A stretch of DNA of 64,000 nucleotides from an uncultured Gammaproteobacteria bacterium (GCA_963768295.1 CAVYHN010000032.1:246-64245), one strand, 5' to 3'; shown: positions 3,906 to 59,417, counted from the stretch's first letter. Made by a program: numbers and translations. The notes: generated from the sequence alone by a model not told the origin.

Positions 3906-5090
3906 TTGCTGGTTATTTTACGCAATAGCCTTTCGGCAATTGGTATCGATGGGTTAAAGATGACGGCTGCAATTCGTTGCGCCGTGCTGCTGGGCCTGTG
4001 GACAGTCACCGGGCTGGCCGGCGCGGCAGTGCTGCCGGAAGAACGCGCGGATCTGCTCTACCATAGCTATGACGGCGGTGGTGCCGAAATCTCTGGACCC
4101 TCTTTGCTGGTGCGCAAGAACCTCGGTGACAGCGTTTCGGTTGGCCTGAATCACTATCTCGACAACGTCACCAGTGCTTCGATCGACGTGTTGGTCAGCG
4201 CCAGCGAGTATACCGAGAATCGGGAAGAGAACAGTATCAACCTCGATTACCTGCGCCAGAAGACGACCATGAGTCTGGGTTACACGGTTAGCCAGGAGAG
4301 CGATTTTGACGCCAAAACGCTAAGCCTTGGAATCTCGCAGGACATGTTCGGTGACCTGACCACGATCAGCATGTCGTTTGCACTAGGCGATAACATCATC
4401 GGTAGAAATGGCGACGATGTATTCGAGGAAGAGGCCAAGGTTCGCAGTTACCGCTTTGGTGTATCCCAGATCATGACCAAGAACATGGTCATGGCGATTA
4501 CCTACGAAACGATCAGCGACGAGGGTTATCTCAATAATCCATACCGCCAGGTTCGATATCTCAATGGTGACGGGATTACCTACAGCTTCGAACCAGAAGT
4601 CTATCCGCAAACCCGAACCAGTACCGCGATTGCATTGCGAGCTAACTATTTCCTGCCGCAACGCGCCGCTATTCATGGTGGAGTGCGGGTATTTGACGAT
4701 ACCTGGGATATCGAGGGCACTACCTACGAGGTTGGTTATACGATGCCGTTCGGCGATGAATGGATATTCGAAGCTACCTATCGTTTTCATGATCAATCCA
4801 GCGCAGAGTTTTACAGTGATCTGTTTCCATTCCAGGAAGCCACGACTTTCCGCGCGCGTGATAAAGAGCTGAGCACGTTTACCAGTTCCACCGTTGGTCT
4901 CGGTGCGAGCTGGGAATTTGGGCGTTCCTGGAGCGCGATTGAACGCGGTAGCTTCAATCTGAACATCGACTGGATTAGTTTCGATTATGATGACTTTAGC
5001 GATCTGACGGAGTCGGCGCCGGCTGGTTCAGAATCGCCTTACAGTTTTGATGCCAGGGTTACCCGCTTTTTTACATCGATCTGGTTTTAG
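3906..5090 (+). CDS. DUF3570-like outer-membrane beta-barrel protein (true start may be the ATG near 3960)
   Basis: LPEERADLLYHSYDGGG, DNVTSAS and GYLNNPYR motifs; C-terminal SIWF; lies in the TlpA-DUF4266-DUF3570 arrangement. Confidence 0.8.
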   Translation: MLVILRNSLSAIGIDGLKMTAAIRCAVLLGLWTVTGLAGAAVLPEERADLLYHSYDGGGAEISGPSLLVRKNLGDSVSVGLNHYLDNVTSASIDVLVSASEYTENREENSINLDYLRQKTTMSLGYTVSQESDFDAKTLSLGISQDMFGDLTTISMSFALGDNIIGRNGDDVFEEEAKVRSYRFGVSQIMTKNMVMAITYETISDEGYLNNPYRQVRYLNGDGITYSFEPEVYPQTRTSTAIALRANYFLPQRAAIHGGVRVFDDTWDIEGTTYEVGYTMPFGDEWIFEATYRFHDQSSAEFYSDLFPFQEATTFRARDKELSTFTSSTVGLGASWEFGRSWSAIERGSFNLNIDWISFDYDDFSDLTESAPAGSESPYSFDARVTRFFTSIWF

Positions 5091-6633
5091 CCTGCTGGTG
5101 CTCTATTTTCTGATGCCGGCTTCGCTGCAGGCATCCGAAGTCGCTAACTGCGTGGCGCTTATCGGCGTCGATATCGAAACCAGCGAAATCCTTCCAGCGT
5201 CCGAATCGCAGGCCTTGATCGAGCCTTTCCTCGGCGCCTGCATCGACGTGGATTTAACCCATGACCTGCTGTCGGTAATTTCCGACCACCTTATCGAAAA
5301 CGGCTATGTCACCTCGCGTCCCTACCTGCTGGAGCAGGATATCAGCGATGGTCAGATCGAGATTCGAATCCTGGCCGGCAGCATAGAAAAAATTGTCGAT
5401 GCCGACAGCGGCGGCAGCAATGGCAAGATTGCAACCGCCTTTCTGTTCAATGACGCAATCCTCAACTTGCGCGAACTCGAAACCGCGCTGGAACAAATAG
5501 AGCGAGTTTCATCCATTACTGCCAACATCGAAATAAGACCCGGCGCTCGGCAGGGTGGTAGCATTGTCGCTATCAGGACGGTCGAATCAGATCCATTGAA
5601 ATTCGAACTGGGGGCTAATGCGCAGACGGATCTCGACGACCAGCTCAGTTTTTTGATGAGCTGGGATAACCCTCTGCATATCAACGACATACTGCAGTTT
5701 CGTCTGAATGACGGCGAGCTGCGCGAAACCTTCCAGAGCAACCGCAGCCGCGAGTTGACTTATTCTTTCCCGCTTGGCGGCTATCTGCTCGAGCTGAGCC
5801 ATAGCGATATTAATTTCAAGCAGCGCCTGCAGGGTAGCAACGGCAGTTTTCTGTCCGCAGGCGATACGCTGGCTGACAGCTTTCGCGTCAGTAAAATCGT
5901 TGCCCGCAACCAGGACAGTCGGGTGACGCTGGGGCTGGCACTCGAAATCAAGGATACGGATAATTTTTTTGAAGGCGAGGCGGTCGACGTGTCGAGCTAC
6001 AAGACTAGTCAAATACAACTTGAACTGCGGCATGACTGGTACCAACCCTGGGGGCGGCTAGGCATGCGGTATATATACCATCAGGGGCTGGATTCATTTG
6101 GGGCCAGGGACGATGACTATTTTACCCGCGCGGACGGATCCGAAAACGAGGCGCGCTTACAATTCGAAAAAGTCAGTATCGATAGCAGGGTTTCAGTTTA
6201 CCTCGACGGGCCGAGCTGGTATCTGGACCTGAACCTGCATTTGCAGTACAGCGACGATCTTCTTTTCGACAGCGATAAACTTAATCTGGGCAGCCCCTAT
6301 ACGGTACGCGGGTATTCTTCGGCGTTGAGCGGCAGCAATGCCTGGTATCTGCGAAGTGATATTACCTGGCAACTGGAATCTACTGCTAAGCCGTCAGCGG
6401 CGAAGCGGCTGACCAAATCGGTCGCTCTGTCGTTCGGCCTGGACTATGGCGAAGTTGAATGCGAGATCGATAACGCCGACGTCTGTGGAGAAATCTATGC
6501 TGCCGGTCTGGGCCTGGTGGTGTGGGACTCGAATTTCAGCGGGCGCCTGCTGTGGGGGCATCCGCTCAGGGAAATCGGTGATGGGATTGGGGACGAAGAT
6601 CGCTTCCTGCTCGATTTCCGCTGGGCGCTCTAA
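5047..6633 (+). CDS. ShlB/FhaC/HecB (TpsB) family two-partner secretion transporter; start uncertain
   Basis: POTRA pattern GYVTSRPYL..QDISDGQIEIRILAG; loop-6 motif TVRGY; C-terminal barrel strand FLLDFRWAL. Confidence 0.85.
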   Translation: MMPGLPAFLHRSGFSLLVLYFLMPASLQASEVANCVALIGVDIETSEILPASESQALIEPFLGACIDVDLTHDLLSVISDHLIENGYVTSRPYLLEQDISDGQIEIRILAGSIEKIVDADSGGSNGKIATAFLFNDAILNLRELETALEQIERVSSITANIEIRPGARQGGSIVAIRTVESDPLKFELGANAQTDLDDQLSFLMSWDNPLHINDILQFRLNDGELRETFQSNRSRELTYSFPLGGYLLELSHSDINFKQRLQGSNGSFLSAGDTLADSFRVSKIVARNQDSRVTLGLALEIKDTDNFFEGEAVDVSSYKTSQIQLELRHDWYQPWGRLGMRYIYHQGLDSFGARDDDYFTRADGSENEARLQFEKVSIDSRVSVYLDGPSWYLDLNLHLQYSDDLLFDSDKLNLGSPYTVRGYSSALSGSNAWYLRSDITWQLESTAKPSAAKRLTKSVALSFGLDYGEVECEIDNADVCGEIYAAGLGLVVWDSNFSGRLLWGHPLREIGDGIGDEDRFLLDFRWAL

Positions 6634-6641
6634 CGCCCGGC

Positions 6642-7937
6642 TCAAAGTTGTCGCTCGGTAATGTCTTCGCGTTGATCGAGTTGTTCGATTTCGTGCCTGG
6701 CGACAGCCTCGGCGTATTCGATCGAATCGGGCGCGATATATTCCGCAATCGGCGTGCCGATCGGGCCGGCGACCAGCATCGACTGATCCCTGACTGCAAC
6801 ACCCGCGCGTGATCCGATTCTGATCAGGGTGAAAAAGAATATGAGCGCGAACACGACCGCGATACCCCAGAAGTAAAATTCGATGCCGAGTAATTCCATG
6901 AAAAACGCGATCACGATGGGTCCTATCATGGCGCCGAAACCCGCCACCATGACGAGACTGCCGCTGGCGCCAACAATCTGGTGCGGCTCCAGGCGGTCAT
7001 TGGCATAGGCGATACAGATCGAATACATCGGTATTGCGGCGCCGCCCAGACCCACGATGACCAGGTAAAAAGCCAGGCTGCCTTTGACCATGACCACCGC
7101 CAGGATACAGCAGACAATCGAGACAAGCGACAGCCCCGCCATGACCACGCGCCGGCCGACCAGGTCCGAGATGTGACCAACCGGCCACTGAGCAACGAGG
7201 CTGCCGAGCAGAAAACAGGCCATGAACAGCGATATCGACTTCAAGTCCACCAGAACCTGGTTGGCGTAGATCGCACCCAGGCCGAAAATAGTGCCATGTG
7301 CCATCCCGGTCAGACAGTTGCCGATCGTGGCCAGCGGCGAAGCCCGGTACAGCTCGGCAACCGACATTTTCGACGAGGTACTGAAATTGGGCGCGGGTTT
7401 TGCGGTGAGCAGAATTGGAATCAGCCCGAAGGAGATGATGACCGAGATCAGAATGAACAGGTCGATGGCTTCGGGTTTGGCGATATTCAGCAGGAACTGA
7501 CCCGCGCCCATGCCGCCGGTTACGATCACCATGTAGACAGACAGGACCTTGCCGCGGGTTTCGTTACTGGCGCGATCGTTTAACCAGCTTTCGGTGACGA
7601 CATAGAATCCGGCGAAGCAGAGACCGGTTAAGACGCGCATCGCCATCCATAGCCACGGATCGATATAAACCCCGTGAAACAATATCGAAATCGATGCCAG
7701 CGAAGCCAGCGCCGAAAACACGCGGATGTGGCCGACTCGATTAACCAGCCAGGGTGCGAGCATCGAACCGATGAACATGCCGATAAAATAACCCGACATC
7801 ATGATCCCGGTGCTGAACGTCGAAAATCCCTCGATGCCGGCGCGCACGCCGAGCAAGGTACCCTGCAGGCCGTTGGCCAGCATCATGAAGCCTATGCCAA
7901 GCAGTATCGCCCAGGAGGCGCCGAGCTCTTTCCACAT
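6642..7937 (-). CDS. MFS transporter (YcaD-like)
   Basis: About 12 hydrophobic segments; RVGHIRVF and GHISDLVGRR motif A; ESWLN. Confidence 0.88.
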   Translation of the reverse strand: MWKELGASWAILLGIGFMMLANGLQGTLLGVRAGIEGFSTFSTGIMMSGYFIGMFIGSMLAPWLVNRVGHIRVFSALASLASISILFHGVYIDPWLWMAMRVLTGLCFAGFYVVTESWLNDRASNETRGKVLSVYMVIVTGGMGAGQFLLNIAKPEAIDLFILISVIISFGLIPILLTAKPAPNFSTSSKMSVAELYRASPLATIGNCLTGMAHGTIFGLGAIYANQVLVDLKSISLFMACFLLGSLVAQWPVGHISDLVGRRVVMAGLSLVSIVCCILAVVMVKGSLAFYLVIVGLGGAAIPMYSICIAYANDRLEPHQIVGASGSLVMVAGFGAMIGPIVIAFFMELLGIEFYFWGIAVVFALIFFFTLIRIGSRAGVAVRDQSMLVAGPIGTPIAEYIAPDSIEYAEAVARHEIEQLDQREDITERQL

Positions 7938-8016
7938 CGAATCGTTTTTCCGTGAAGTGAATGACTAGCAGTCAGTGTGCGCGGATTCTAGTAGAGCGCT
8001 GACAGCGCAGCAACGA

Positions 8017-8832
8017 CTAATTCAGTTCCGCGTAGCCGGCTTCAATGGCAAAGTTTTCAAGCTCGAGGATCGATTGATAATCGTCCAGGCCGACGCTTTC
8101 GAAACGCGCCAGGTGCAGCTTTTGCCTAAGCTCTGCGGGTAGCAGCGTCAAAGCCTGGTTGAGTGCGCTTACATAGCTTGCGCAAACTTGTGCTGAATAT
8201 TGCGACGTCGGCACGACCAGGGGGAGGCCGCCGGTTTGCTCGCTGTGGCCGATAACACGCAGTGCGGAAATCAGGGCGGGATTCTGGTCGGCGATCAACT
8301 GGTAAGTGACGCAGTCGATGGCCGCCAGCTGGGCCCGGTTTGACGCGACCGCCTCGACGCTGGCGAGATGACCTCCGCTGATCAGGACTTCCGAAAAATA
8401 ACCCGGCGTAGCGCCCAGCTTTGCCAGCGCATAGCGCAGCACGTTCATGCCGCTGTTCGAATCGCTGCTATTGATCGCGACGATTTTGCCACGGCATTGC
8501 TGCAGTGACTCGATTACTGAATCCGCGGGTACGATGAACTGGCTCGAATAGAATTTACCGCTAGCACCCGGCAGGTCGAAGCAGGGCAGGCAAAAAGGCT
8601 GGAGTGCGTCCCGTAATCGCGTCATCAATGGGTATCCACAGGTGTGACCAATTATCAGGTTGTCAGCGCGCAGAACTGATTCATCGCTGGCGAAAACCAG
8701 TTGCCGCGTTAATCCGCTACCCAGATCGAGCAAAGGATAAAATAGGTCAAAAAGCGCCTGCCAGGCATTTCGGATGTCGTCATTCGGTGCATACATGCCG
8801 CAGGCAATGAATCGGCCGGCATTCATGGCCAT
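8017..8832 (-). CDS. PhnD/SsuA/transferrin-family substrate-binding protein, no evident signal peptide
   Basis: HTCGYP, AINSSDSNSG, SGGHLASVEAVASNRAQLAAIDCVT motifs. Confidence 0.75.
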   Translation of the reverse strand: MAMNAGRFIACGMYAPNDDIRNAWQALFDLFYPLLDLGSGLTRQLVFASDESVLRADNLIIGHTCGYPLMTRLRDALQPFCLPCFDLPGASGKFYSSQFIVPADSVIESLQQCRGKIVAINSSDSNSGMNVLRYALAKLGATPGYFSEVLISGGHLASVEAVASNRAQLAAIDCVTYQLIADQNPALISALRVIGHSEQTGGLPLVVPTSQYSAQVCASYVSALNQALTLLPAELRQKLHLARFESVGLDDYQSILELENFAIEAGYAELN

Positions 8833-8933
8833 ACAAAGTATCCCGGGAATAACTTAAAAACCAGCTTCTTTTAATGCCTGGTTTGTTGATTTAAGTAAAC
8901 AAAAATGTTTTGAAAAAACTCTAGTGACATAGA

Positions 8934-8962
8934 TAGACAATTTTAAATACGTCAAATACTAT
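8934..8962 (+). promoter_or_regulatory. Putative sigma70 promoter of the mttB operon
   Basis: TAGACA (8934-8939), 17-nt spacer, TACTAT (8957-8962) in an AT-rich divergent intergenic region. Confidence 0.55.
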
Positions 8963-8988
8963 CGACGCTTGCCGCCGAGGAGCCGGTC

Positions 8989-10509
8989 ATGCCCAGAAGA
9001 AGAGCTCGAAAACCTACCCCGTCCAGCGAACAACTGCTGCCGCCGAAAGCGCAGCAGCTGTTCAACCCCTATGCCCCGATTGCGGCACTGGATGCGGAGT
9101 CGCTGGATTTAATCCATGACGCCTCGATGCGGATTCTCGAAGAGATCGGCCTCGAGATACTGAGTCGGGACGCGCTTGCGCTGTACGAGCAAGACGGGGC
9201 ACGCGTCGACTGGGATGAGCAGAAGGTTTACCTGGACCGCAACCAGCTCATGCAGAGAATTGCGAGCGTGCCCTCGGAGTTTACGCTGCATGCGCCAAAC
9301 CCCGAGCGCAACCGCCTGATAGGGCGCAATGCGATCAACTTTACCACCGTTGCCAGCGCGCCCAACAGCTCCGATCTCGAAGGCGGCAGGCGCACTGGCA
9401 ACTTTGCAGACTACTGCAACTTTCTGCGCCTGGCGCAAAGCTTCGACGTCATCGATTTTCTCAGCGGTTACCCGGTCGAGCCGATCGACATTCCACCCGA
9501 TACACGCCACCTCGACGCTACCCTGGCGGCATTCACGCTGACCGATCGCGCGTTTTCACTCTACTGCCTCGGCGGCGGCCGCGTTCTGGACGGGATACAG
9601 ATGACCGCGATTGCGCGCGGGGTCGATCTGGAAACCCTCAAAACGCAACCCAGTATAAACAGCGTGGTCAATACCAATTCGCCGCTGCGGGTCGACGGGC
9701 CGATGCTCGATGGCCTGATAGAAATGGCGCAGTATGGTCAGCCCGTTATCGTGACTCCGTTTACGCTATCCGGGGCGATGTGCCCGATTACCCTTGCCGG
9801 TGCGCTGGCGCAGCAAAATGCCGAGGCGCTCGGCGTCATCGCCTTGTCGCAAATCGTCAACCCGGGCGCGCCGATGGTATACGGCGGCTTCACCTCGAAC
9901 GCGGATATGCGCAGCGGTGCCCCGGCCTTTGGCACGCCCGAGTACACCCGCGCCGCCTGGGCCAGCGGCCAGCTCGCGCGCCGCTACGGTATTCCATTTC
10001 GTTCGTCCAATACCAATGCGTCGAATTGCGTCGACGCCCAGGCCGCCTGGGAATCGCAGATGTCGCTGTGGGGTGCGGTCATGGGGCATGCGCAGATTAT
10101 CAAACACGCCGCCGGCTGGCTCGAGGGCGGTCTGTGCGCTTCGTTCGAAAAATTCATTATCGATGTCGACATGCTGCAAATGATGCGCGAGACACTGACG
10201 CCGCTGAAGGTGGATGAATCGACGCTGGCGCTGGACGCGATCAGGGAAGCCGGGCACGGTGGTCATTTCTTCGGCACCGCGCATACCCTGGCTAACTACA
10301 CCACCGCTTTTTACGAGCCGCTGGTTTCCGACTGGAGCAATTTCGAGGCCTGGAGCGAGAACGGTGCGCAGAATGCGTTTCAGCGCGCCAACCTGATATA
10401 CCGGCAAAAACTTGCCGAGTATCAGCCGCCCGCAATGGATGCCTCGAGACGCCAGTCGCTGGAACAGTATGTCGTCGAACGCCGGCACGAACTGGAGCTC
10501 GCACGGTGA
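8989..10509 (+). CDS. Trimethylamine methyltransferase family protein (MttB/MtgB-like, pyrrolysine-free)
   Basis: NTNSPL, PFTLSGAMCPITLAGALAQQNAE, GAPAFGTPE and HAAGWLEGGL motifs; no in-frame amber codon. Confidence 0.92.
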   Translation: MPRRRARKPTPSSEQLLPPKAQQLFNPYAPIAALDAESLDLIHDASMRILEEIGLEILSRDALALYEQDGARVDWDEQKVYLDRNQLMQRIASVPSEFTLHAPNPERNRLIGRNAINFTTVASAPNSSDLEGGRRTGNFADYCNFLRLAQSFDVIDFLSGYPVEPIDIPPDTRHLDATLAAFTLTDRAFSLYCLGGGRVLDGIQMTAIARGVDLETLKTQPSINSVVNTNSPLRVDGPMLDGLIEMAQYGQPVIVTPFTLSGAMCPITLAGALAQQNAEALGVIALSQIVNPGAPMVYGGFTSNADMRSGAPAFGTPEYTRAAWASGQLARRYGIPFRSSNTNASNCVDAQAAWESQMSLWGAVMGHAQIIKHAAGWLEGGLCASFEKFIIDVDMLQMMRETLTPLKVDESTLALDAIREAGHGGHFFGTAHTLANYTTAFYEPLVSDWSNFEAWSENGAQNAFQRANLIYRQKLAEYQPPAMDASRRQSLEQYVVERRHELELAR

Positions 10510-11360
10510 AATTACAGGAACGGGTCAGCCTGTTCCAGGACCGCCTGCAGCAGGTCATTAGCTATAGCGGGCTCAATCGCTCGGCGTTTGCGGCCTCGAT
10601 CAGGGTCGATCGTTCGACCCTGTCGCAGTTACTCGCGGTCGACAATATCCGCCTGCCACGCGCCGACACGGTGACGTCGATCGCCGAAGTCCATCAGGTC
10701 AGCATCGACTGGCTGCTGGGTTTGACCCAGGAAGGCTCGATGGGCGCCAATATTCTGCCCGAAGCTTTCCAGTTCGATGCTTACTCGACCAGTATTCTCG
10801 AAAAAAACCTGGAATGGCATCGTGAAGCCTGCGGTTACAAAATCCGCTACGTGCCGACGACCCTGCCCGACCTGCTCAAGACCGAAGCGGTGGCGGAGTA
10901 CGAATTCAATCGCTATGGCGCCGGCAAGGTCGATCAGACAGTGCGCGACAACCAGCTGCTGTTGCTGCAACAACGCCATCCGGGCAGCGAACTCGAAACC
11001 TGCATGCCACTGCAGCAGCTCGAAAGTTTCGCTGCCGGGCAGGGGATCTGGCAGGGGTTGGCGCTGGCCGATCGCCGCGCCCAGCTCGAACGCATGATCG
11101 AACTCAATGCTGAGCTTTACCCGGGATTTCGCTGGTTTCTGTTCGACGGCAAACAAAGCTACTCGTCGTCGTTTATCATATTCGGCCCATTGCGGGCGAC
11201 GCTGTTCCTCGGACACCTGTATGTCATCGTCAACAGCATCGATCATATACGCCAGCTTACCGATCGCTTCGACGACCTGATTCGCATCGCGATGGTGCAC
11301 CCGCATGAAATCCAGGCCCACCTGCAACAACTGCTGGAACAGACAGAGCAACTAACTTGA
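10506..11360 (+). CDS. XRE-family helix-turn-helix transcriptional regulator with a long C-terminal domain
   Basis: SGLNRSAFAASIRVDRSTLSQLL...VSIDWLLGL HTH; GTGA overlap with the mttB stop. Confidence 0.8.
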   Translation: MKLQERVSLFQDRLQQVISYSGLNRSAFAASIRVDRSTLSQLLAVDNIRLPRADTVTSIAEVHQVSIDWLLGLTQEGSMGANILPEAFQFDAYSTSILEKNLEWHREACGYKIRYVPTTLPDLLKTEAVAEYEFNRYGAGKVDQTVRDNQLLLLQQRHPGSELETCMPLQQLESFAAGQGIWQGLALADRRAQLERMIELNAELYPGFRWFLFDGKQSYSSSFIIFGPLRATLFLGHLYVIVNSIDHIRQLTDRFDDLIRIAMVHPHEIQAHLQQLLEQTEQLT

Positions 11361-11375
11361 AGACAGGAACTCAGC

Positions 11376-12683
11376 ATGGCTAAGAGCTACGATGCAATCA
11401 TCATTGGCGCCGGAATTATCGGTTGCGCAACCTCGCTCGCGCTGGGGCGCAAAGGCTGGAAGGTGCTGAACCTGGACCGCCTGCCGGCGGCGGGCTACGG
11501 CTCTACCTCGGGCTCCTGCGCTATTATCCGCCCCTATTACTCTACGCTCGACGGCTCGGCGATGGCTTACGAGTCGCATTTCTACTGGAAAAACTGGGCC
11601 GAGTACCTGGGCGGCGACGATATCGACGAGCGCGGCCTGATCGAGTATCACAATGTCGGTTCGCTGGTCATGAAAACCGAGGCTAACGACTACCTGCGCC
11701 CGACGATGGCGTTGATGGAGCATCTCGACTCCCCCTACAGCGAGCTTTCGCCCGCAGAAATACGCCAGAAATTGCCGGTCTGGAACACCGAATCGTTTTA
11801 TCCGGTGAAGCGACCCGATGATTCCGAATTCGGCGTCGCCAACGAGCAACCCTTGCCCGGCGCCGTGCTGTTTCATGCCGCGGGTTATATCTCAGATCCG
11901 CAGCTGGCGACGCATAACATTATGCGTGCCGCCGAGATTGCCGGCGGTGAGTTCAAGTACAACGCGCGGGTGATCGAAATTCGCCGTGACAGCGGTCAGG
12001 TCTCTGGCGTTACCCTCGAAGGCGGTGAAACCGTCGATGCCCCAGTGGTGCTCAATGCCGCCGGACCGCATTCATCCAAGGTCAATCAGATGGCAGATGT
12101 CGAGAAATCGATGCGGGTCAAAACCCGCGCGCTGCGCCAGGAAGTGGCGCATGTGCCGCTACCGGAGGGTTACCGCCGTGAAACCGCCTGCGTTACCTCG
12201 GATAGCGATATCGGGCTCTACACCCGTCCCGAGCAGGGCGATGCGCTCCTGATCGGCAGCGAGGATCCACCCTGCGACCCGCATGAATGGGTGGACCCGG
12301 ATGACTATAACCGTGATTTCAGCGAACAGTGGAAGGTGCAGGTACTGCGAGTTTGTCAACGGGTGCCGAATCTGGGCGTGCCCAGCCAGATGCGCGGCGT
12401 AGTCGATCTGTACGATGTTACCGATGACTGGATCCCGATCTACGACCAGTCGGACCTGCCCGGTTTTTACCTCGCGATCGGCACCAGCGGTAACCAGTTC
12501 AAAAACGCGCCAATCGCAGGTGAATTGATGGCTAACATCATCGAGGCGACGCAAAGCGGCAACGATCACGATGCCGACCCGATCGATTTTCATCTAAAAA
12601 CAATCGATCATACTTTTTCCAGCGGTTTTTACTCACGCTTGCGTGAGGTTAACCAGGACAGCAGCTTTTCCGTACTGGGGTAG
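11376..12683 (+). CDS. FAD-dependent oxidoreductase (DAO / sarcosine-oxidase-like)
   Basis: Rossmann motif IIIGAGIIG; GSTSGSCAIIR; YDVTDDWIPI; GTSGNQFK. Confidence 0.88.
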   Translation: MAKSYDAIIIGAGIIGCATSLALGRKGWKVLNLDRLPAAGYGSTSGSCAIIRPYYSTLDGSAMAYESHFYWKNWAEYLGGDDIDERGLIEYHNVGSLVMKTEANDYLRPTMALMEHLDSPYSELSPAEIRQKLPVWNTESFYPVKRPDDSEFGVANEQPLPGAVLFHAAGYISDPQLATHNIMRAAEIAGGEFKYNARVIEIRRDSGQVSGVTLEGGETVDAPVVLNAAGPHSSKVNQMADVEKSMRVKTRALRQEVAHVPLPEGYRRETACVTSDSDIGLYTRPEQGDALLIGSEDPPCDPHEWVDPDDYNRDFSEQWKVQVLRVCQRVPNLGVPSQMRGVVDLYDVTDDWIPIYDQSDLPGFYLAIGTSGNQFKNAPIAGELMANIIEATQSGNDHDADPIDFHLKTIDHTFSSGFYSRLREVNQDSSFSVLG

Positions 12684-12688
12684 CAGAT

Positions 12689-15106
12689 ATGAAATCTCAT
12701 GCACAGGTAGTGGTCATTGGCGGCGGGGTAGTCGGTTGCAGCGTTATCTATCACCTGACCAAACTCGGCCTGCGGGACGTGGTTCTGATCGAACGTTCGG
12801 AATTGACTTCGGGCTCGACCTGGCACGCCGCCGGCGGATTCCACACGCTCAATGCCGATACCAACATGGCCGCGTTGCAGGGTTACACGATTCGCCTTTA
12901 TCGTGAGCTCGAGGAACTCACCGGCCAGTCCTGCAGCCTGCATCACGTCGGCGGTATCACGCTCGCGGAGTCGCCGGAGCGGCTCGATTTCCTCAAGTCG
13001 GCACGCGCGATGCATCGCCACATGGGTCTCGATACCGAGCTGATTACGCCCGCGGAAATTCGCAAACTAAGTCCGATTACCAATACTGACGGCGTCCTCG
13101 GCGCGTTGTACGATCCGCTCGACGGACACCTTGACCCCTCGGGGACCACGCACGCCTATGCCAAAGCGGCGCAGATGCAGGGCGCTGAAATCGTGCTGCG
13201 CTGTCCGGTGCTGGAAACCAATCCAAGGGCTGACGGCAGCTGGGAAGTGGTTAGCGAACAGGGCACGATTATCGCCGAACAACTGGTCAATGCCGCCGGG
13301 CTGTGGGCGCGCGAAGTCGGCGCCATGGCCGGGGTGTACCTGCCGCTGCATCCGATGGAACACCAGTATTTCGCAACCGCGGATATTGCCGAGGTGTACG
13401 GGCACGCGCGCGAGTTACCGCACGTCATGGACCCCGAGGGCGAGAGTTATCTGCGCCAGGAAGGCAAGGGCCTGGTGATCGGATTTTACGAACAGAACTG
13501 CGTGCCCTGGGCGGTCGACGGCACGCGCTGGGATTTCGGACATGAACTGCTGGATGAAAATCTCGATCGCATCGGCGATTCGATGGAGTTCGCCTTCAGG
13601 CGTTTCCCGGTGCTCGCCGACGCCGGTATCAAGACCATCATCAACGGGCCCTTCACCTTTGCGCCGGACGGTAACCCGCTGGTCGGGCCGGTGCCCGGCC
13701 TGCGTAACTACTGGTCAGCCTGTGCGGTGATGGCCGGTTTCAGCCAGGGCGGTGGCGTCGGGCTAACGCTGGCGGAATGGATGATCGATGGTGAACCCTC
13801 ACGTGATGTGTTCGCGATGGACGTGGCGCGCTTCGGCGATTACTGCACGCCGTCGTACACCCGCCTCAAGGTGCGTGAGAATTACCAGCGGCGTTTCAGC
13901 GTGTCCTATCCCAACGAGGAGTTGCCGGCGGCGCGACCCCTGGACACCACCCCGGTTTACGGCATCTGGCAGTCGCAAAATGCGGTCTTTGGCGACATGT
14001 ACGGCATGGAGCACGTAAATTACTTTGCGCCCGCGGCTGAGGAACCGTATGAAATTCCGAGTTTTCGGCGCTCCAATGCCTTCGACACGGTGGCTGAAGA
14101 GGTGCGCGCGGTGCGCGAAAACGTCGGTCTCAACGAGGTGCATAATTTCGGCAAGTACGAAGTCTCGGGCGCGGGCGCGCACGCGTACCTTGACCGGATC
14201 ATGGCCGGCAGGATACCGGCAGTCGGCAGGCTGAGCCTGAACCCGATGCTGAGCCCACGCGGCCGGATTATCGGCGATTTTACCGTGGCCCAGGTTTCGA
14301 CCGGCGTATTCCAGGTCACCGCGTCGTTCGGCGCGCAGGCTTACCACATGCGCTGGTTCGAACAGCATTTGCCCGCATCGGGGGTGCAGCTGCGCAATAT
14401 TTCAAAACAGCGTATCGGATTTCAGATCGCGGGCCCGAGGGCGCAGGAATTGCTGGCGCGGGTAACGCGCGCCGACGTGTCGACCGCGGCGATGCCCTTC
14501 CTGTCGATTCGCGAAATCGATGTCGGCCAGTGCCAGGCGATCGTGCAGCGCGTCAGCTATACCGGTGACCGCGGTTATGAAATCTATGTACCCTGGCACA
14601 ACCAGGTCGCGCTCTACCAGGTGCTGACCGAGGCGGGTAAAGATCTCGCGCTGCGGCCCTTCGGGATGCGCGCAATGATGAGCCTGCGACTCGATAAATC
14701 ATTCGGTTCCTGGATGCGTGAATTCAAGCCCGACTATACGCCGCTCGAAACCGGTCTCGATCGTTTCGTCGCTTATGATAAGGCTACCGATTTCATCGGC
14801 AAGGCCGCGGCGCTGGCTGAAAGAGAGCAGGGCGTGAGCCGCAGGTTATGCACCTTCGAGGTCGACGCCAGGGATGCCGATGCCGTCGCCTGGGAACCTA
14901 TCTGGCACGCCGGTGAGGTCGTGGGTTACGTGACCTCGGGCGGTTACTCGCATTACGCCAAAAAGAGCATCGCCTTCGGATTCCTGCCGACTGAACTGGC
15001 CGCAGAAGGTCGCCAGGTCGAAATCGAAATCCTCGGCGACATGATCCCGGCCCGACTCTACACCGCGCCCCTGTTCGATCCCGACAACGAATACCTGCGT
15101 GGCTAG
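12689..15106 (+). CDS. GcvT-family FAD-dependent dehydrogenase (dimethylglycine/sarcosine dehydrogenase-like)
   Basis: VIGGGVVG, LTSGSTWHAAG, NGPFTFAPDGNPLVG; folate-binding GcvT half (SYTGDRGYE, GYVTSGGY). Confidence 0.93.
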   Translation: MKSHAQVVVIGGGVVGCSVIYHLTKLGLRDVVLIERSELTSGSTWHAAGGFHTLNADTNMAALQGYTIRLYRELEELTGQSCSLHHVGGITLAESPERLDFLKSARAMHRHMGLDTELITPAEIRKLSPITNTDGVLGALYDPLDGHLDPSGTTHAYAKAAQMQGAEIVLRCPVLETNPRADGSWEVVSEQGTIIAEQLVNAAGLWAREVGAMAGVYLPLHPMEHQYFATADIAEVYGHARELPHVMDPEGESYLRQEGKGLVIGFYEQNCVPWAVDGTRWDFGHELLDENLDRIGDSMEFAFRRFPVLADAGIKTIINGPFTFAPDGNPLVGPVPGLRNYWSACAVMAGFSQGGGVGLTLAEWMIDGEPSRDVFAMDVARFGDYCTPSYTRLKVRENYQRRFSVSYPNEELPAARPLDTTPVYGIWQSQNAVFGDMYGMEHVNYFAPAAEEPYEIPSFRRSNAFDTVAEEVRAVRENVGLNEVHNFGKYEVSGAGAHAYLDRIMAGRIPAVGRLSLNPMLSPRGRIIGDFTVAQVSTGVFQVTASFGAQAYHMRWFEQHLPASGVQLRNISKQRIGFQIAGPRAQELLARVTRADVSTAAMPFLSIREIDVGQCQAIVQRVSYTGDRGYEIYVPWHNQVALYQVLTEAGKDLALRPFGMRAMMSLRLDKSFGSWMREFKPDYTPLETGLDRFVAYDKATDFIGKAAALAEREQGVSRRLCTFEVDARDADAVAWEPIWHAGEVVGYVTSGGYSHYAKKSIAFGFLPTELAAEGRQVEIEILGDMIPARLYTAPLFDPDNEYLRG

Positions 15107-41441: not shown

Positions 41442-42476
41442 ATGTACGCAATGAGTAACAACGACCGCGCAATCATGCGCTGGTTACAGCTATGCCTGGT
41501 ACTGATTTTCGCCATGGTCATTCTCGGCGGCGTCACCCGGCTCACCGACTCCGGGCTTTCCATGGTGACCTGGCATCCTGCTGGTATGCTGCCGCCGCTT
41601 GGCGATCAACAATGGCATGCCGAATTCGAGCTTTACCAGCAGTATCCGGAGTATCAGAAACTGAACCGTGACATGTCGCTCGAAGGCTTCAAGTCGATAT
41701 TCTGGTTCGAGTACTCGCATCGCATGCTGGGGCGACTGATCGGCCTGGTGTTTCTGCTGCCGTTGGTTTACTTCCTGCTGCGCAAAATGGTCAAACCCGG
41801 CCTGACGCCCAGGCTGGTGATCCTGTTTTTTCTAGGCGGCATGCAGGGTCTGCTCGGCTGGTACATGGTTAAGAGCGGCCTGGTCAGCAATCCGCACGTT
41901 AGCCAGTACCGGCTGACCGCGCATTTGCTCAGCGCAATCCTGATCTACGGTTTCCTCCTGTGGACGATATTCAATCTGGCTTTCCCGCTTAAATACCGCC
42001 CCCTGGCCGAATCCGATGTGAGCGGCTGGCGCAAGGCCTCCTGGGGTCTGTTGACCCTGCTGCTGGTAACGATCGCCACCGGCGGATTCGTCGCCGGCCT
42101 CGATGCGGGGATGATATTCAATACCTTCCCCCTGATGGGAGACACCCTGCTGCCCGAGGGCATAGGCGCGTTAACGCCCTGGTATCTGAATCCCTTTGAA
42201 AACCTGGTGACGGTGCAATTCAATCATCGTTGGCTGGCCATCACGACCGGCCTGTTGCTCATTGTCTGGTATGTCAAGGGGCGTTCTCGATTCGACGACG
42301 CCTTGCTGCAGCGCGGCTTTAAACTGGTCGGCATGATGGTGATCATCCAGCTTGGACTCGGAATTGCGACCCTGCTGATGCAGGTCCCGGTGTTGCTCGG
42401 CGCGTTGCACCAGGCCGGCGCCCTGGTACTATTCGGCGTTTTGCTGCTTAACGTCCATGCACTCAGCCGCGTGTAG
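41442..42476 (+). CDS. ctaA: Heme A synthase (COX15/CtaA)
   Basis: GGVTRLTDSGLS, WFEYSHR, QGLLGWYMVKSGL, QFNHR, HQAGA. Confidence 0.93.
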   Translation: MYAMSNNDRAIMRWLQLCLVLIFAMVILGGVTRLTDSGLSMVTWHPAGMLPPLGDQQWHAEFELYQQYPEYQKLNRDMSLEGFKSIFWFEYSHRMLGRLIGLVFLLPLVYFLLRKMVKPGLTPRLVILFFLGGMQGLLGWYMVKSGLVSNPHVSQYRLTAHLLSAILIYGFLLWTIFNLAFPLKYRPLAESDVSGWRKASWGLLTLLLVTIATGGFVAGLDAGMIFNTFPLMGDTLLPEGIGALTPWYLNPFENLVTVQFNHRWLAITTGLLLIVWYVKGRSRFDDALLQRGFKLVGMMVIIQLGLGIATLLMQVPVLLGALHQAGALVLFGVLLLNVHALSRV

Positions 42477-53893: not shown

Positions 53894-55222
53894 TTACAGG
53901 CTTTCGAAGCTGCGGTTAATCGCGGCTTCGAAGACCGGTACGTCTTCCATTTGCGTGCACAGCGGCGGGCAGATACGCAACACGTTGCGATAGGCGCCCG
54001 ACTTGCTCGCCACCAGCCCGTTGGCGCGCGTATTCTCGAACAGGCGCGCCATGGTTTCCGGGTCGGGTTGCTTGCTGTCGCGATCCTTGACCAGCTCCAG
54101 CGCCATCATCATGCCGCGCCCGCGCACGTCGCCGATGACCTCATGCCGGGTTTGCAGATCCCGCAGTACGTCGAGCAGGGCCGCGCCGACCTGGCGCGCG
54201 CGCTGCTGCAGCTCGTGTTTTTCGATCACGTGCAGCACCGCGCGACCGGCGGCGCAGCTTACCGGGTTGGCGCCATAGGTGTGGAAATAAAACTTTTGCG
54301 CCATCGCCTCGGCGATTTCACGCTTGACGATCAGCGCCGCCAGCGGAAATCCGTTGCCGATGCCCTTGGCTGCAACGACGATATCGGGCACCACATCGTG
54401 CTGCTGAAACGACCAGAAACTGTCGCCGGTGCGCGCCATACCCGCCTGCACTTCGTCGATGATGAGCAGGCCACCGGCGGCCTTGACGCGTTCCTGGGCG
54501 CCGCTGATGTAGCCTTCGGGCATGGGTACGATGCCGCCGTAGCCCTGCACCGGTTCGATGAACATGCCGGCCAGCTGGCCGCAGGTGCCGTAATGAATCG
54601 TGCCTTCGAGATCGCTCAGGTAGGGCTCGACCCCTGCGCCATGAATGCCGCGGTACTGGTCCGGCACCGGCGCGAACTGCACGCCGCCGAGCTGCGGCAC
54701 GTTGTGGCGAAAGCCGCTGATACCGGTGACCGACTGCGCGCCGAAGGTGGCGCCATGATAAGCGTTGGTCAGCGAAACGATATCGATGTTGCCGGTATAG
54801 CTGCGCGCCAGCAGAATCGCCATGTCGATCGCCTCGGCGCCGCTGTTCATCAGGTGCACGGTCCAGTCTTCGCCGGCCGGCATGGTGCGCGTCAACTCTT
54901 CGGCAAAATGCGCCGGCACCGGGTGAAAAAACATCGTCGTGCAGTGCTGTAGCGTTTGCGCCTGCTTGACCACTTCACGCGTAACCACGGGATTGTTGTA
55001 ACCGATGCTGATGGTCAGGTTCTGACTCAGGCAATCGAGGTACTGGTTGCCTTTTTCGTCCCACAGGTAATTGTCCTGACCGCGGCTGAATATCAGCGGT
55101 TTCTGGTAGGGCACGAAGGCGCGTTGCGAGGCCGCGTAATAGGTATTGCGCCGCGCGACGATGGCGTCGCTGTCCCAGTCGATTTCGAATTCATGCTGGT
55201 CGTGGTCGAATTGTGAAGTCAT
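53894..55222 (-). CDS. Class III PLP aminotransferase (AGXT2-like); start set at MTSQF
   Basis: NSGAEA, YHG, IEPVQGYGG, LIIDEVQAG, AKGIGNG; GGAG precedes the chosen start. Confidence 0.9.
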   Translation of the reverse strand: MTSQFDHDQHEFEIDWDSDAIVARRNTYYAASQRAFVPYQKPLIFSRGQDNYLWDEKGNQYLDCLSQNLTISIGYNNPVVTREVVKQAQTLQHCTTMFFHPVPAHFAEELTRTMPAGEDWTVHLMNSGAEAIDMAILLARSYTGNIDIVSLTNAYHGATFGAQSVTGISGFRHNVPQLGGVQFAPVPDQYRGIHGAGVEPYLSDLEGTIHYGTCGQLAGMFIEPVQGYGGIVPMPEGYISGAQERVKAAGGLLIIDEVQAGMARTGDSFWSFQQHDVVPDIVVAAKGIGNGFPLAALIVKREIAEAMAQKFYFHTYGANPVSCAAGRAVLHVIEKHELQQRARQVGAALLDVLRDLQTRHEVIGDVRGRGMMMALELVKDRDSKQPDPETMARLFENTRANGLVASKSGAYRNVLRICPPLCTQMEDVPVFEAAINRSFESL

Positions 55223-55406
55223 CGCCATCTCCGCCCTGATATTGTCTGGCCGAACATAGCCGATGCGCGGCTGCGAAACAATCGCCAAAACACGAATCGA
55301 GTCATTCTTATAGGCGTTTATCGATTTTCATTTAGTCGCCGCAGGGTGGTTGTTTCATGCCTGATCTCTGTCAGAATGAACCACGGGTTTAACGACAGGA
55401 ACAACG

Positions 55407-56950
55407 GTGGCAGCTACGCGAGGTAAATCGACAGGCAGGCGCAAGCGCAGGACGCGCGGCCAACCCCGGGCTCGCGGCGACACCACGCCTGCCCTATATC
55501 AGGCGCAACATAGCCACTTACGATATTCTGAGCGAAGAGGGTTTGTGCCTGATCGAGGAAAACGCCGACCGCATACTGCGCGACATCGGCATGGAGTTTC
55601 ATAACGATCCCGAGATTCTCGACTACTTCCGCGAAGCCGGCGCCGATGTCGACGGGGTGCGGGTGCGCTTCGAGCCGGGCATGTGCCGCCGGATCATCCA
55701 GGCGTCGGCGCCACGGCAGTACACCCAGCACGCGCGTAACCCGGACAACAATGTCGAGATCGGCGGTGACAACACCGTGCTGAGCCCGGTTTACGGCCCG
55801 CCCTTCGTGCACGATATCGATCAGGGCCGGCGTTACGCCACGCTCGACGATTTCGTCAAGCTCAACAAGATTCACCAGATGATTCCGCATCTGCATCACT
55901 GCGGCGGCATCGTTTGCGAACCGGTCGACTTGCCGGTCAACAAGCGTCACCTCGACATGATGCTGGCGCACATCACCTACGGTGACCGCGCGCTGTTCGG
56001 CGCCCTGATCGGCAGCGAGCGCGCCGAGGATTCGGTGGCGATGGTCAAGATCCTGTTCGGCGATGAATTCGTCGACCAGAACACCGTGCTCTACGGGGTT
56101 TCCAACACCAATGCGCCGCTGGTAATGGACGACGCCATGTCGGGTTCGCTCAAGGTTTACGCGCGCAATAACCAGGCCGTTGCCTGCACGCCGTGGATGA
56201 TTACCGGCGCGATGAGCCCCTGCACCGAGGCGGGCACGCTGGCGCAACTGCTGGCCGAGGCGCTGGCGACCTGCGCCCTGACGCAATTGATTCGCCCCGG
56301 CGCGCCGTGCCTGATGGGCAGCTTCGCGACCGCGATGTCGATGCAGTCGGGCGCGCCGACTTTCGGCATGCCCGAGGCCGCGCAAGACCGTGCTCGCCGC
56401 CGGCCAGCTGGCGCGTCGGCTCGGCGTGCCGTTTCATACCGTCGGCAGCCTGACTTCGTCCAAGGTTCCCGACAGCCAGGCGCAGCAGGAAGGTAGCATG
56501 AGCCTGATCATGGCGGTGCTGGCCGGCGCCAATTTCATCAACCACGCCACCGGCTGGCTCGAGGGCGGGCTTTGCACCGGCTTCGAAAAAACCATCATCG
56601 ATGCCGACCTATGCGGCAAGTTGATCGAATTCTGCAAGGGCATTGATTTATCTGAAAACGCGCAGGCGATGGAGGCCATCGCCGAGGTCGGTCCCGGCAG
56701 CCATTTTCTGTCCAGCGCGCATACGCTGAATAACTTTGAAACCGCTTACTATCGCTCCAGCATCGGCGATGCGAATTCGTTCGAACAATGGCAAGACGAG
56801 GGCAGCCTGCAGACCGCGCAGCGCGCCAATAAAATCTGGAAACAACTGCTCGACGATTACCAGCAACCGCCGCTCGACCCGGCCATACTCGAAGCCCTGC
56901 AGGACTACGTCGAGCGCCGCAAGTCCGCGATGCCCGACCGCAATTACTAG
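55407..56950 (+). pseudogene. Second MttB-family methyltransferase, split by two +1 frameshifts (~55440-55480 and ~56375-56385)
   Basis: LPYIRR...DILSEEG, GPPFV, SGAPTFGMPE, HATGWLEGGL spread across three frames. Confidence 0.85.
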
Positions 56951-57006
56951 ATGCCGAAACCCATGCTCGCATTTTTATCTGTTACTGACTTTTCTCCGGG
57001 AATTCG

Positions 57007-59417
57007 ATGACTAGCGAACGCAAAAATGTCGTCGTCATCGGTGGGGGCGCGATCGGGCTCAGCGTGGCTTACCACCTCGGACATCTGGGTGTCGAGGATG
57101 TGCTGCTGCTGGAACGCGATCGGCTGACCAGCGGCACGAGCTGGCATGCGGCGGGTATCGTCGGCCCGCTGCGCGCGAGCATGAATCTGACTAAGCTGGC
57201 GCAGTATGCGCTCGAGTTGTTCGCCGAGCTGGAAGTCGAAACCGGGCAGGCCACCGGCTACCAGCAAACCGGCGGTGTGTGGCTCGCGCAAAAATCGGAG
57301 CGCATGGTCGAGTTGCAACGCATCAAGGCGATGGGCGACCGGGCTGGGCTCGCGACCGAAGTTATGTCGGGACCGCAAATCCGCGAGCGATTACCGTTTT
57401 TGCACAGCGATGACCTGGCCGGCGGTCTGTGGGTCGAGCAGGATGGCCAGGTGAACCCGGTTGATCTGTGTATGGCTTATGCCAGGGGAGCGAGGGCACA
57501 GGGCGTGGAAATTCGGGAGCACAGCCGGGTCGCCGAGATCGAGGTCGATCGGGGCGCGGTCAGGGCGGTGGCGCTGGCCGATGGAAGCCGCATCGAATGC
57601 AACAAGCTGGTGCTCTGCGCCGGCGCCTGGTCGCGCCAGCTCGGCGCGCTGGCCGGGCGTCGATATCCCGCTCGCCGCCTGCGAGCATATGTACCTGGTG
57701 ACCGACGTGGTCGATGAATTATCGTGGCCCTGTCCGATCATCCGTGACCTCGATGCCGGAATCTATTTAAAGGGTGATAACCGCAAGCTGCTGCTGGGCG
57801 CTTTTGAAGCCAAACCCGAAAATCTGGAAACCGCGGCAGCAGGATGCCGGCTTCCTGATGTTCGACGAGGACTGGGATCATGTGCAGCCAATGCTCGAGG
57901 CCGGAATCCGGCGCGCACCGGTGATCGCCGAGCAGGGCATTACCCACTTCATGAATGGTCCCGAGAGTTTTACCCCGGACACCCGGCAGATCATGGGTGA
58001 GACGCCGACCTGCCGTAACCTGTTCGTCGCCGCCGGATTCAATTCGATCGGCATCATGTCGTCGGCCGGAGTGGGCAAGGTCATGGCGCCCTGGATTCGC
58101 GACAATGAAGCGCCGCTCGATTTGTGGGAAGTCGATATTGCCCGGCTGGATCCGCTGCAGGGCAGGGATGACTACCTGGCGGCGCGCCTGCCGGAAGCGG
58201 TACACAATCAGTTTGCCATGCACTGGCCTTACAAACAGTATCAGACCGGTCGCGGATTGCGCCGCTCGGCCTGGCACCGGCGGCTGGCGGAGCAGGGCGC
58301 GGTATTCGGCGCGCCGACCGGCTGGGAGCGACCGTTGTGGTACGCCGCCGATGAAGTCGAGGCCGAACCCGGTTATAGCTACGGCGCGCAGCCCTGGTGG
58401 CCCGCCGCCAGGCGCGAAGCCCTGCACTGCCAGCGGCAGGTTAGCCTGTTCGAATTGAGCCCGTTTACCAAGATCGAGGTCAGCGGCGCAAATGCGCTGC
58501 GCTTTCTGCAAATGATGTGCTGCGGCGATATCGATATCGAGCCAGGGCAGCTGCGTTACAGCCTGATGCTGAATCAACGTGGCGGTATCGAAGCCGAAAT
58601 CACGCTCACTCGATTGTCGGCAAATCGTTTTCGCATCGTCGGCGGCGCCGCGACCCGGTTCAAGGATCTTTTCTGGTTGCGCAGGCATCTGCGCGACGAG
58701 ACGCAGGTCGAAATCACCGACGTGACCGAGGATTATGCCGTTGCCGGAATTATGGGGCCGCAGTCGCGCAATCTGTTGCAGGATTTGTGTGCGTTCGATT
58801 TCGAAGACGAGGCTTTTCCGTTTTCCAGTGCCCGGCAAATACAAATCGATGATTGCGAGTTGCTCGCAACCCGCCTCAGTTTCGTCGGCGAGCTGGGCTG
58901 GGAACTCTTTATTCCGGTGCAACATGCATCGCGGGTGCTGAAGGCGGTGCTGGCGGCCGGGGTGAAATACGAGTTGGGACTGGCCGGGCATTTCGCGCTC
59001 GACGGCTGCCGCCTGGAAGTGGGATTCCTTCACTGGGGATATGATATGGGCGCCGATGATACGCCCTGGGAATGCGGGCTCGATTTTGCCGTCAGGCTCG
59101 ACAAGCGTGATGATTTCATTGGCAAACAGGCGCTGATCGCTCAGCGGCAAAACGGCTGGGACAAGCAATTGAAATTGTGCGAAGTGCAGGCGCATGCGGT
59201 CTTGATACTGCACGACGAGCCGGTTTACCGCGCGCGTAAAATTGTCGGTCACTGTACCTCGGGCGGACAGGGATATCGTACCGGCAGGACGCTGTGTTTC
59301 GTCATGTTTTACCAACGCGATGTCAGCAGCGCAGACGACTGCCAGATCGAAGTGGCGGGTGAGCGTTACGCTCTCGAAATTCTCGATAAACCTCCCTACC
59401 GGGCGAATAGCAAATGA
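57007..59417 (+). pseudogene. GcvT-family FAD-dependent dehydrogenase, split by two +1 frameshifts (GGG at 57655-57657, CCC at 57815-57817)
   Basis: VIGGGAIG, TSGTSWHAAG, NGPESFTPD, SFVGELGWE; removing one base at each site restores a single frame. Confidence 0.85.

Follow-up and report, generated by a model that had tools for sequence, protein, structure and literature searches.

An MttB operon without a corrinoid gene of its own in an uncultured marine gammaproteobacterium is probably one spoke of a shared cobalamin-dependent N-demethylation hub

How can a methyltransferase of the MttB superfamily, all characterised members of which methylate a corrinoid (PMC13080624, PMC12155760), function from an operon that brings no corrinoid protein with it? 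The question is raised by a stretch of 64,000 nucleotides from an uncultured Gammaproteobacteria bacterium (GCA_963768295.1 CAVYHN010000032.1:246-64245), referred to here in its full length as the window, in which positions 8989-15106 encode an MttB-type protein, a regulator-like protein of the XRE type and two flavoenzymes. The window corresponds to positions 246-64245 of contig C32 in a 4.57-Mb assembly (G000) that is 95% complete. A sequence-only reading of the operon had proposed that it starts the stepwise demethylation of a quaternary amine, using either a distant corrinoid partner or a different chemistry. The first of these options held, while the second lost its footing with the finding of a complete corrinoid hub on another contig, C26, and the operon is likely to be one spoke of a hub-and-spoke system of cobalamin-dependent N-demethylation. 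The cluster would thereby add a member, from a new lineage of hosts, to the MtgBCD-type hub-and-spoke scheme already published.

The premises from which the question arises stand as they had been described. The MttB protein is free of pyrrolysine, being encoded by a single, uninterrupted open reading frame (ORF) of 506 amino acids (aa) without an in-frame UAG codon, and it reaches 291.6 bits against the pyrrolysine-type model TIGR02369, where the cut-off is 525. It matches PF06253 with 621.6 bits over profile positions 5-499 of 500 and aligns with the solved structures 4YYC, 2QNE and 9YCE (MtgB) at E values of ~1e-94 to 1e-98, with conservation spanning the whole barrel. It is a member of the non-pyrrolysine MttB branch and is predicted to methylate a corrinoid protein. 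Profile matches across the genome include none to PF02310 (B12-binding) or PF00809 (pterin-binding) on contig C32, so the window is, as claimed, devoid of a corrinoid or corrinoid:tetrahydrofolate (THF) methyltransferase gene. The host appears capable of aerobic life, with a heme A synthase gene at 41442-42476 of the window.

A search of the genome for stand-alone B12-binding proteins or a split methionine synthase (MetH), as the sequence-only reading had advised, returned one of the former and putative parts of the latter. Contig C26 carries a corrinoid protein of the MttC/MtgC type (Table 1), which scores 135 bits to MttC chain 7XCN_M, the trimethylamine corrinoid protein of a methanogen, and 197 bits to 1Y80, and which is the sole cap-bearing corrinoid protein in the assembly. 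It is clustered with genes for a flavin reductase, a DUF1638 protein, a MetF2-like member of the methylenetetrahydrofolate reductase family, a pterin-binding, MtgD-like methyltransferase, a RACo/RamA reductive activase and a GbdR-like AraC regulator, the MtgD-like, MetF2-like, RamA and DUF1638 genes all lying no more than 7 kb from the corrinoid gene. RamA occurs once in the genome, as does a pterin-binding protein other than FolP, and another MttB paralogue is found further along C26, past the hub. Five matches to PF02574, the homocysteine-binding module, lie in short ORFs of 160-405 aa without a MetH-like extension, four of these in stand-alone ORFs of 333-405 aa. The MetH activation domain (PF02965) gave no match in the 95%-complete assembly; two relatives carry MetH proteins of 1241-1243 aa. 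A second B12-binding match, on contig C12, was considered as a methyl carrier and set aside, as it is without a cap domain and ends at the contig edge. Hits of equal score fall in ORFs of 1089-1091 aa in two relatives and of 529 aa in a third, so that the C12 match is probably of the mutase type.

The hub cluster on C26 (locus L016, 3636-17235) further encodes, besides the flavin reductase and the GbdR-like regulator, which is of the AraC/DJ-1 type, a PAS-GGDEF protein with an SBP_bac_3 domain. These genes stand between RamA and the MttB paralogue next to the hub, and they may link osmolyte sensing to cyclic di-GMP signalling.

The arrangement closely resembles one described in aerobic marine bacteria. 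In Ruegeria pomeroyi, genetics has established that a core MtgC and a bidirectional MtgD work in the demethylation of glycine betaine as well as in the synthesis of methionine (Mausz et al. 2025, PMC12478193), with RamA, DUF1638 and MetF2 being co-induced. Up to seven pfam06253 paralogues are present, and the authors suggest that other methylated compounds enter the same hub; mtgC has also been reported from marine Gammaproteobacteria (PMC12478193). The novelty implied by the sequence-only reading for an MttB without an adjacent corrinoid protein consequently falls away, trans-encoded, shared hubs having been published in 2025 (PMC12478193). The genome analysed here shares with the MtgBCD(E) system of R. 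pomeroyi DSS-3, and with the split methionine synthase of Phaeobacter inhibens (PMC12478193), an aerobic host, scattered pfam06253 paralogues and a single core corrinoid protein placed, together with the pterin methyltransferase, MetF2, RamA and DUF1638, away from most paralogues. Among its stand-alone homocysteine modules, with classical MetH not found in the 95%-complete assembly, may be a counterpart of the MtgE of that system. The genome differs in its gammaproteobacterial host, in its 11 MttB loci against up to seven, in the clustering of the hub genes, in an MttB clade that is separate from the sampled Roseobacter proteins (45-48% identity), and in an accessory protein with the fold of the sensor AioX, none being described in that system.

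What the genomes show directly is their gene content and synteny, that the hub is present and unique, and that it co-occurs with the cluster. Species-representative genomes were scanned, the set for the order comprising 79 species genomes. The same MttB, at 77-94% identity, occurs in ~50 species of uncultured marine Gammaproteobacteria belonging to one genus, the Olavius algarvensis Gamma 3 endosymbiont among them. In the MttB tree the window protein falls within a 45-member clade (SH-like support 100) that is set apart from the paralogues of its own genome, from a Roseobacter clade and from an Arenicellales/Acidiferrobacteraceae clade. The Roseobacter sister clade was tried as a clue to the substrate; its MttB stands alone near recJ, an uninformative context. 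A core composed of the AioX-fold gene, mttB and the dimethylglycine dehydrogenase (DMGDH)-like gene is kept in ~50 species, frequently with a transporter gene of the MFS type. With the AioX-fold gene as marker, the cluster is found in 51 of 60 genomes of the genus (52 of 61 with G000 counted) and in none of 18 from other genera. RamA accompanies the marker in 49 of the 51 genomes, both exceptions being incomplete (62% and 80%), and one 97%-complete genome has neither. One closed chromosome from the genus has ~510 kb between the cluster, at ~2.59 Mb, and the corrinoid hub, at ~3.11 Mb.

The four genes do form one apparent operon, as had been stated: mttB and the helix-turn-helix (HTH) gene overlap by 4 bases (stop and start), and gaps of 15 and 5 bases follow. 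These short distances, a promoter-like site (TAGACA-17-TACTAT, 8934-8962) and a GAGGAG ribosome-binding site at 8979-8984, just 5' of the MttB ATG, fit a single transcription unit, the promoter being a consensus match only, of a kind no more frequent here than in shuffled controls. A decaying cluster was considered and rejected, all four genes being full length and 72-98% identical to their orthologues. The divergent upstream pair, an MFS transporter gene and the AioX-fold gene, was left out of the sequence-only reading and belongs to the same unit.

Table 1. Genes and sites of the operon and its divergent neighbours in the window, with the corrinoid protein of contig C26
Feature	Position	Strand	Details
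MFS transporter, YcaD-like	6642-7937	-	PF07690; NF002962 143.9 bits; co-oriented with the AioX-fold gene
AioX/ArrX/PhnD-fold binding protein without signal peptide, predicted oxyanion pocket	8017-8832	-	271 aa; PF12974
Divergent intergenic region: promoter-like site, MttB ribosome-binding site	8833-8988	.	consensus match
MttB-superfamily methyltransferase without pyrrolysine, quaternary amine:corrinoid protein Co-methyltransferase class	8989-10509	+	506 aa; PF06253
XRE-type HTH protein with uncharacterised C-terminal domain of ~200 aa	10506-11360	+	284 aa; weak HTH_3
DAO-family FAD amine oxidoreductase (sarcosine oxidase / glycine oxidase / PbfD-like class)	11376-12683	+	435 aa; PF01266
DMGDH/sarcosine dehydrogenase-family flavoenzyme with THF-binding GcvT domain	12689-15106	+	805 aa; DAO + FAO_M + GCV_T + GCV_T_C
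MttC/MtgC-type corrinoid protein	C26:18015-18719		234 aa; PF02607 cap + PF02310 B12-binding; DxHxxG motif GDIHDIG

The two flavoenzymes are of the N-demethylase type and form with MttB a conserved unit that fits the stepwise demethylation originally proposed. All four domains of the DMGDH-like protein score above their cut-offs, and its gene adjoins mttB in essentially all related loci that reach far enough. It has the four-domain architecture of mammalian DMGDH (4PAA, 5L46) and scores 632 bits against the rat and 624 against the human enzyme. It departs from these in being one of at least 10 paralogues in the genome, several of which form pairs with MttB genes at other places, and its substrate is predicted only; by its sequence it would be the second-step N-demethylase of the pathway. 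The DAO-family protein reaches 165.8 bits against PF01266, its nearest solved relatives being glycine and sarcosine oxidases at merely 25-35 bits. Its gene is missing from ~12 related loci, and the enzyme is an accessory, dispensable part. Several related loci, even the nearest (L018), do without the HTH protein, which is probably a pathway regulator and likewise accessory. It scores 20.3 bits against HTH_3, under the Pfam cut-off of 23; its look-alikes by the Atlas language model (score 0.98) are XRE/HTH_3 families of ~280 aa, and it is 72-89% identical among 23 orthologues. An AlphaFold2 model built from 25 close orthologues is poor (pLDDT 55.5, the C-terminal domain below 50), with the N-terminal helices confident. 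A 43%-identical paralogue of this ~280-aa family lies on contig C23 (locus L098, 4697-5545), beside a fatty-acid desaturase, DUF1538 proteins and RecQ, a context that offers no functional clue.

From this arrangement we infer every catalytic step, and also that the hub is shared and to which class the substrate belongs. MttB would bind a trimethylammonium compound bearing an acidic group, such as a betaine-type osmolyte, and hand a single methyl group to the corrinoid protein from C26 in its Co(I) state. There the MtgD-like methylcorrinoid:THF methyltransferase and the MetF2-like methylene-THF reductase would take the methyl group further, with RamA and DUF1638 acting in reactivation. This one hub would be common to all 11 MttB loci and would probably also supply methionine synthesis through the stand-alone homocysteine-binding modules. 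The tertiary amine left by MttB may undergo oxidative demethylation by the adjoining THF-dependent DMGDH-like flavoenzyme, and the resulting secondary amine could pass to the DAO flavoenzyme wherever that gene is present. The MFS protein is the probable substrate importer, its gene adjoining in 26 related loci and a paralogue (C16:152502-153782) lying ~2.5 kb from a group-A MttB paralogue on C16, while the XRE-type protein probably controls the operon. Finally, the AioX-fold protein may bind the acidic or oxyanion group of the substrate in the cytoplasm, for sensing or hand-over.

Several points weigh against this hub-and-spoke interpretation. It is built on sequence and genome context rather than on biochemistry or expression; the co-occurrence counts come from related, non-independent genomes of one genus and are descriptive, not statistical; the AioX-fold protein is without precedent in described MttB systems; two residues that bind the trimethylammonium group in MtgB (Y97 and F356) are lost from the window MttB, being A122 and G381 in the alignment to 9YCE; and CobS (PF02654) was not found in the 95%-complete assembly, so that cobalamin would have to be imported. 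The missing CobS, like the want of a corrinoid gene on contig C32, could also speak for an MttB homologue that works without a corrinoid, whether as a non-catalytic protein or as an enzyme that passes the methyl group straight to THF or some other acceptor. Such a protein is most improbable here, given that the genome has a complete hub, which is found with the cluster in nearly all cases, that the whole barrel is conserved with respect to MtgB, and that every characterised member of the superfamily methylates a corrinoid. The genome, although reliant on several B12 enzymes, combines the lack of a CobS match with that of a MetH activation domain, which could point to cobalamin auxotrophy and to methionine synthesis via the split MtgCDE route.

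The residues of MttB bear most directly on the substrate. The glycine betaine site of MtgB from Desulfitobacterium hafniense is made up of a cation-pi pair for the trimethylammonium group, Y97 and F356, and of R312 and H348, which bind the carboxylate (Picking et al. 2026, PMC13080624). Exchange of either aromatic residue (Y97A or F356L) raises the Km several hundred-fold, each being needed for a low Km, and the enzymes for carnitine, proline betaine, gamma-butyrobetaine and phosphocholine keep the acid-binding half but not the aromatic half (PMC13080624). Like these, the window protein retains the carboxylate pair, as R338 and H373 in the 9YCE alignment. It resembles MtgB (2QNE, 9YCE; PMC13080624) as a member of the same superfamily with a full-length alignment (E ~1e-94) and differs in the aromatic pair, in its aerobic host and in a corrinoid partner that is not adjacent. 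R109, D156 and H423 are among the residues that never vary in its clade and set it apart from the sister clades and paralogues, where His stands at the position of D156 and Pro at that of H423. Four of the 11 paralogues, the window MttB included, keep Arg and His and have lost Tyr. Tyr, Arg and His are all kept in the C26 paralogue, which is beside the hub and the GbdR-like regulator, and in the C24 paralogue, which has its own DMGDH; the C7a paralogue keeps Tyr and Arg and has lost His, a frameshifted second MttB in the window has retained Tyr and His and carries a further His at the Arg position, and three paralogues are without both Arg and His.

These patterns need to be set against the simplest biochemical reading, a plain glycine betaine pathway in which an MtgB-type step is followed by DMGDH acting on dimethylglycine and a sarcosine-oxidase-like DAO enzyme yielding glycine, the cluster being an isoenzyme set on the shared hub. 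Three enzymes would then match three methyl groups, R338 and H373 are in place, and the window DMGDH-like protein is the best DMGDH match of the genome, its 632 bits (rat) exceeding the 605-617 of the C24 paralogue and the 436 of that on C55. Scores against solved DMGDH were tried as a means of picking the true dimethylglycine enzyme and gave no separation (632 against 617 bits). Glycine betaine is moreover a major osmolyte of the worm hosts and sediments that the genus inhabits. The aromatic residues required for low Km in MtgB (PMC13080624) are however Ala and Gly here, Tyr being retained instead by the C26 and C24 paralogues; the cluster possesses a regulator of its own and an oxyanion-pocket protein; and ~12 relatives do without the DAO enzyme. 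A plain glycine betaine pathway is accordingly conceivable, with its chances well short of even, and glycine betaine is, tentatively, the single most likely named substrate. The outcome that the sequence-only reading had set against itself, a dedicated corrinoid partner and an ordinary glycine betaine enzyme, came about in one half only: a partner exists, yet it would be shared rather than dedicated, and two of the four MtgB residues are not conserved.

The AioX-fold protein points in another direction. Its gene is invariably directly upstream of mttB in the related loci, in either orientation, and its AlphaFold2 model (pLDDT 93.6) is matched by Foldseek to AioX (6esk) with a TM-score of 0.79, resembling ArrX, PtxB and PhnD as well. 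Taking the seven AioX pocket residues from PMC5908839, Y88/C106/Y131/S161/S163/H192/D210 correspond to F47/C65/Y95/S125/S127/H155/D173, so that six of seven are kept, the AioX-specific Cys and Asp included; 27 orthologues show no change at C65, S125, S127, H155 and D173 and hardly any at Y95. In fold and pocket the protein is therefore like the AioX/ArrX arsenic-oxyanion sensors and, in fold, like the PhnD/PtxB phosphonate/phosphite-binding proteins (PMC5908839). Unlike them it has no signal peptide, nor do ~40 orthologues, all of which start just ahead of the first strand (FIACGMY), which indicates a cytoplasmic location. The periplasmic location and the sensor kinase/response regulator partner that mark AioX and ArrX are both missing; neither a sensor kinase nor an ABC transporter adjoins, the neighbours being mttB and the MFS gene. 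Among the matches listed for the protein, all are close relatives of at least 52% identity. Distant paralogues in four related genomes (31-33% identity) were considered as a clue from context and rejected, no MttB or DMGDH gene being nearby.

The substrate could accordingly be an onium compound carrying a phosphonate, phosphate or arsenic oxyanion that is bound by this cytoplasmic protein, candidates being N,N,N-trimethyl-2-aminoethylphosphonate, phosphocholine, or an arsenical such as arsenobetaine. The pocket and its constant company with mttB fit such a substrate, and the MthB/MthK phosphocholine system of Eubacterium limosum (PMC12155760) offers a parallel: an MttB member, acting on a substrate with an oxyanion and not a carboxylate, whose acidic group is handled by a divergently encoded accessory protein. 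That system differs in that the accessory protein is a choline kinase, the corrinoid and THF methyltransferase genes are adjacent and the host is an anaerobe. The genome has in addition a full pathway for 2-aminoethylphosphonate (AEP), with a DMGDH-like gene beside phnW, and N-methyl-AEP is oxidised by DAO-family enzymes (PMC10590968); for trimethyl-AEP only an oxygenase route has been described (PMC10590968). On the other side, AioX Y88 is Phe in the window protein and ligand binding is predicted only, while the window DMGDH-like protein is far closer to true DMGDH than the copy in the AEP cluster. The 96%-complete genome G014 has the cluster and is without PhnA, PhnW and PhnX. Co-occurrence of these three genes was tried as a test for a phosphonate and does not discriminate, AEP genes being near-universal in the genus with or without the cluster (PhnA in 37 of 51 cluster-bearing and nine of nine cluster-free genomes). 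For arsenobetaine, genes for demethylation are not known to have been described. An oxyanion-bearing substrate is on balance rather unlikely. The same small chance is given to the wider idea that this MttB clade and its cytoplasmic AioX-fold neighbour constitute a cobalamin-dependent demethylation route for oxyanion-bearing onium compounds, the binder serving as an intracellular substrate receptor, a role that to our knowledge has not been described for the AioX/PhnD fold.

Under the hub-and-spoke interpretation, an orphan MttB operon in an aerobe is not in itself evidence of new chemistry, and a genome-wide search for a corrinoid protein should come first. The shared-hub model would extend from Roseobacters to a species-rich genus of uncultured gammaproteobacterial sediment dwellers and symbionts, in which 11 MttB loci per genome imply a broad, B12-dependent diet of methylated osmolytes, with a bearing on nitrogen and one-carbon cycling in marine sands and gutless-worm symbioses. 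The cytoplasmic AioX-fold partner is a lead to a new specificity within the MttB superfamily.

Other loci of the genome carry related genes. A second MttB cluster occupies 53894-61797 of the window, with a class-III aminotransferase gene (53894-55288, minus strand), one MttB gene and two DMGDH-like genes, the last three each split into two overlapping or adjacent frames (55543-56496/56390-56950, 57007-57717/57774-59417 and 59604-60668/60424-61797). Three successive frameshifted genes suggest a decaying cluster or local assembly errors, and the aminotransferase hints at an omega-amino-acid betaine as substrate. On contig C16 (locus L100, ~6190-11780) an MttB paralogue 49% identical to the window protein neighbours a 703-aa enzyme of the StcD (N-methylproline demethylase) type with old yellow enzyme/FMN and FAD parts, a BetI-type TetR repressor, an MFS paralogue and a sulfatase; the locus is probably a module for proline betaine or a related compound. 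The AEP catabolic cluster on contig C55 (locus L109, 1602-13738) is complete, with a PhnT2/PhnU2 transporter, PhnW, a LysR regulator, PhnA and PhnY. Its 819-aa DMGDH-like, THF-dependent flavoenzyme (6191-8650, minus strand) directly adjoins phnW; it may be a THF-linked N-methyl-AEP demethylase, in which it would differ from the PbfB/C/D oxidases already published. Positions 3906-6633 of the window, immediately upstream of the MFS gene, encode a DUF3570 protein and a two-partner-secretion transporter of the ShlB/FhaC type, both unrelated to the operon.

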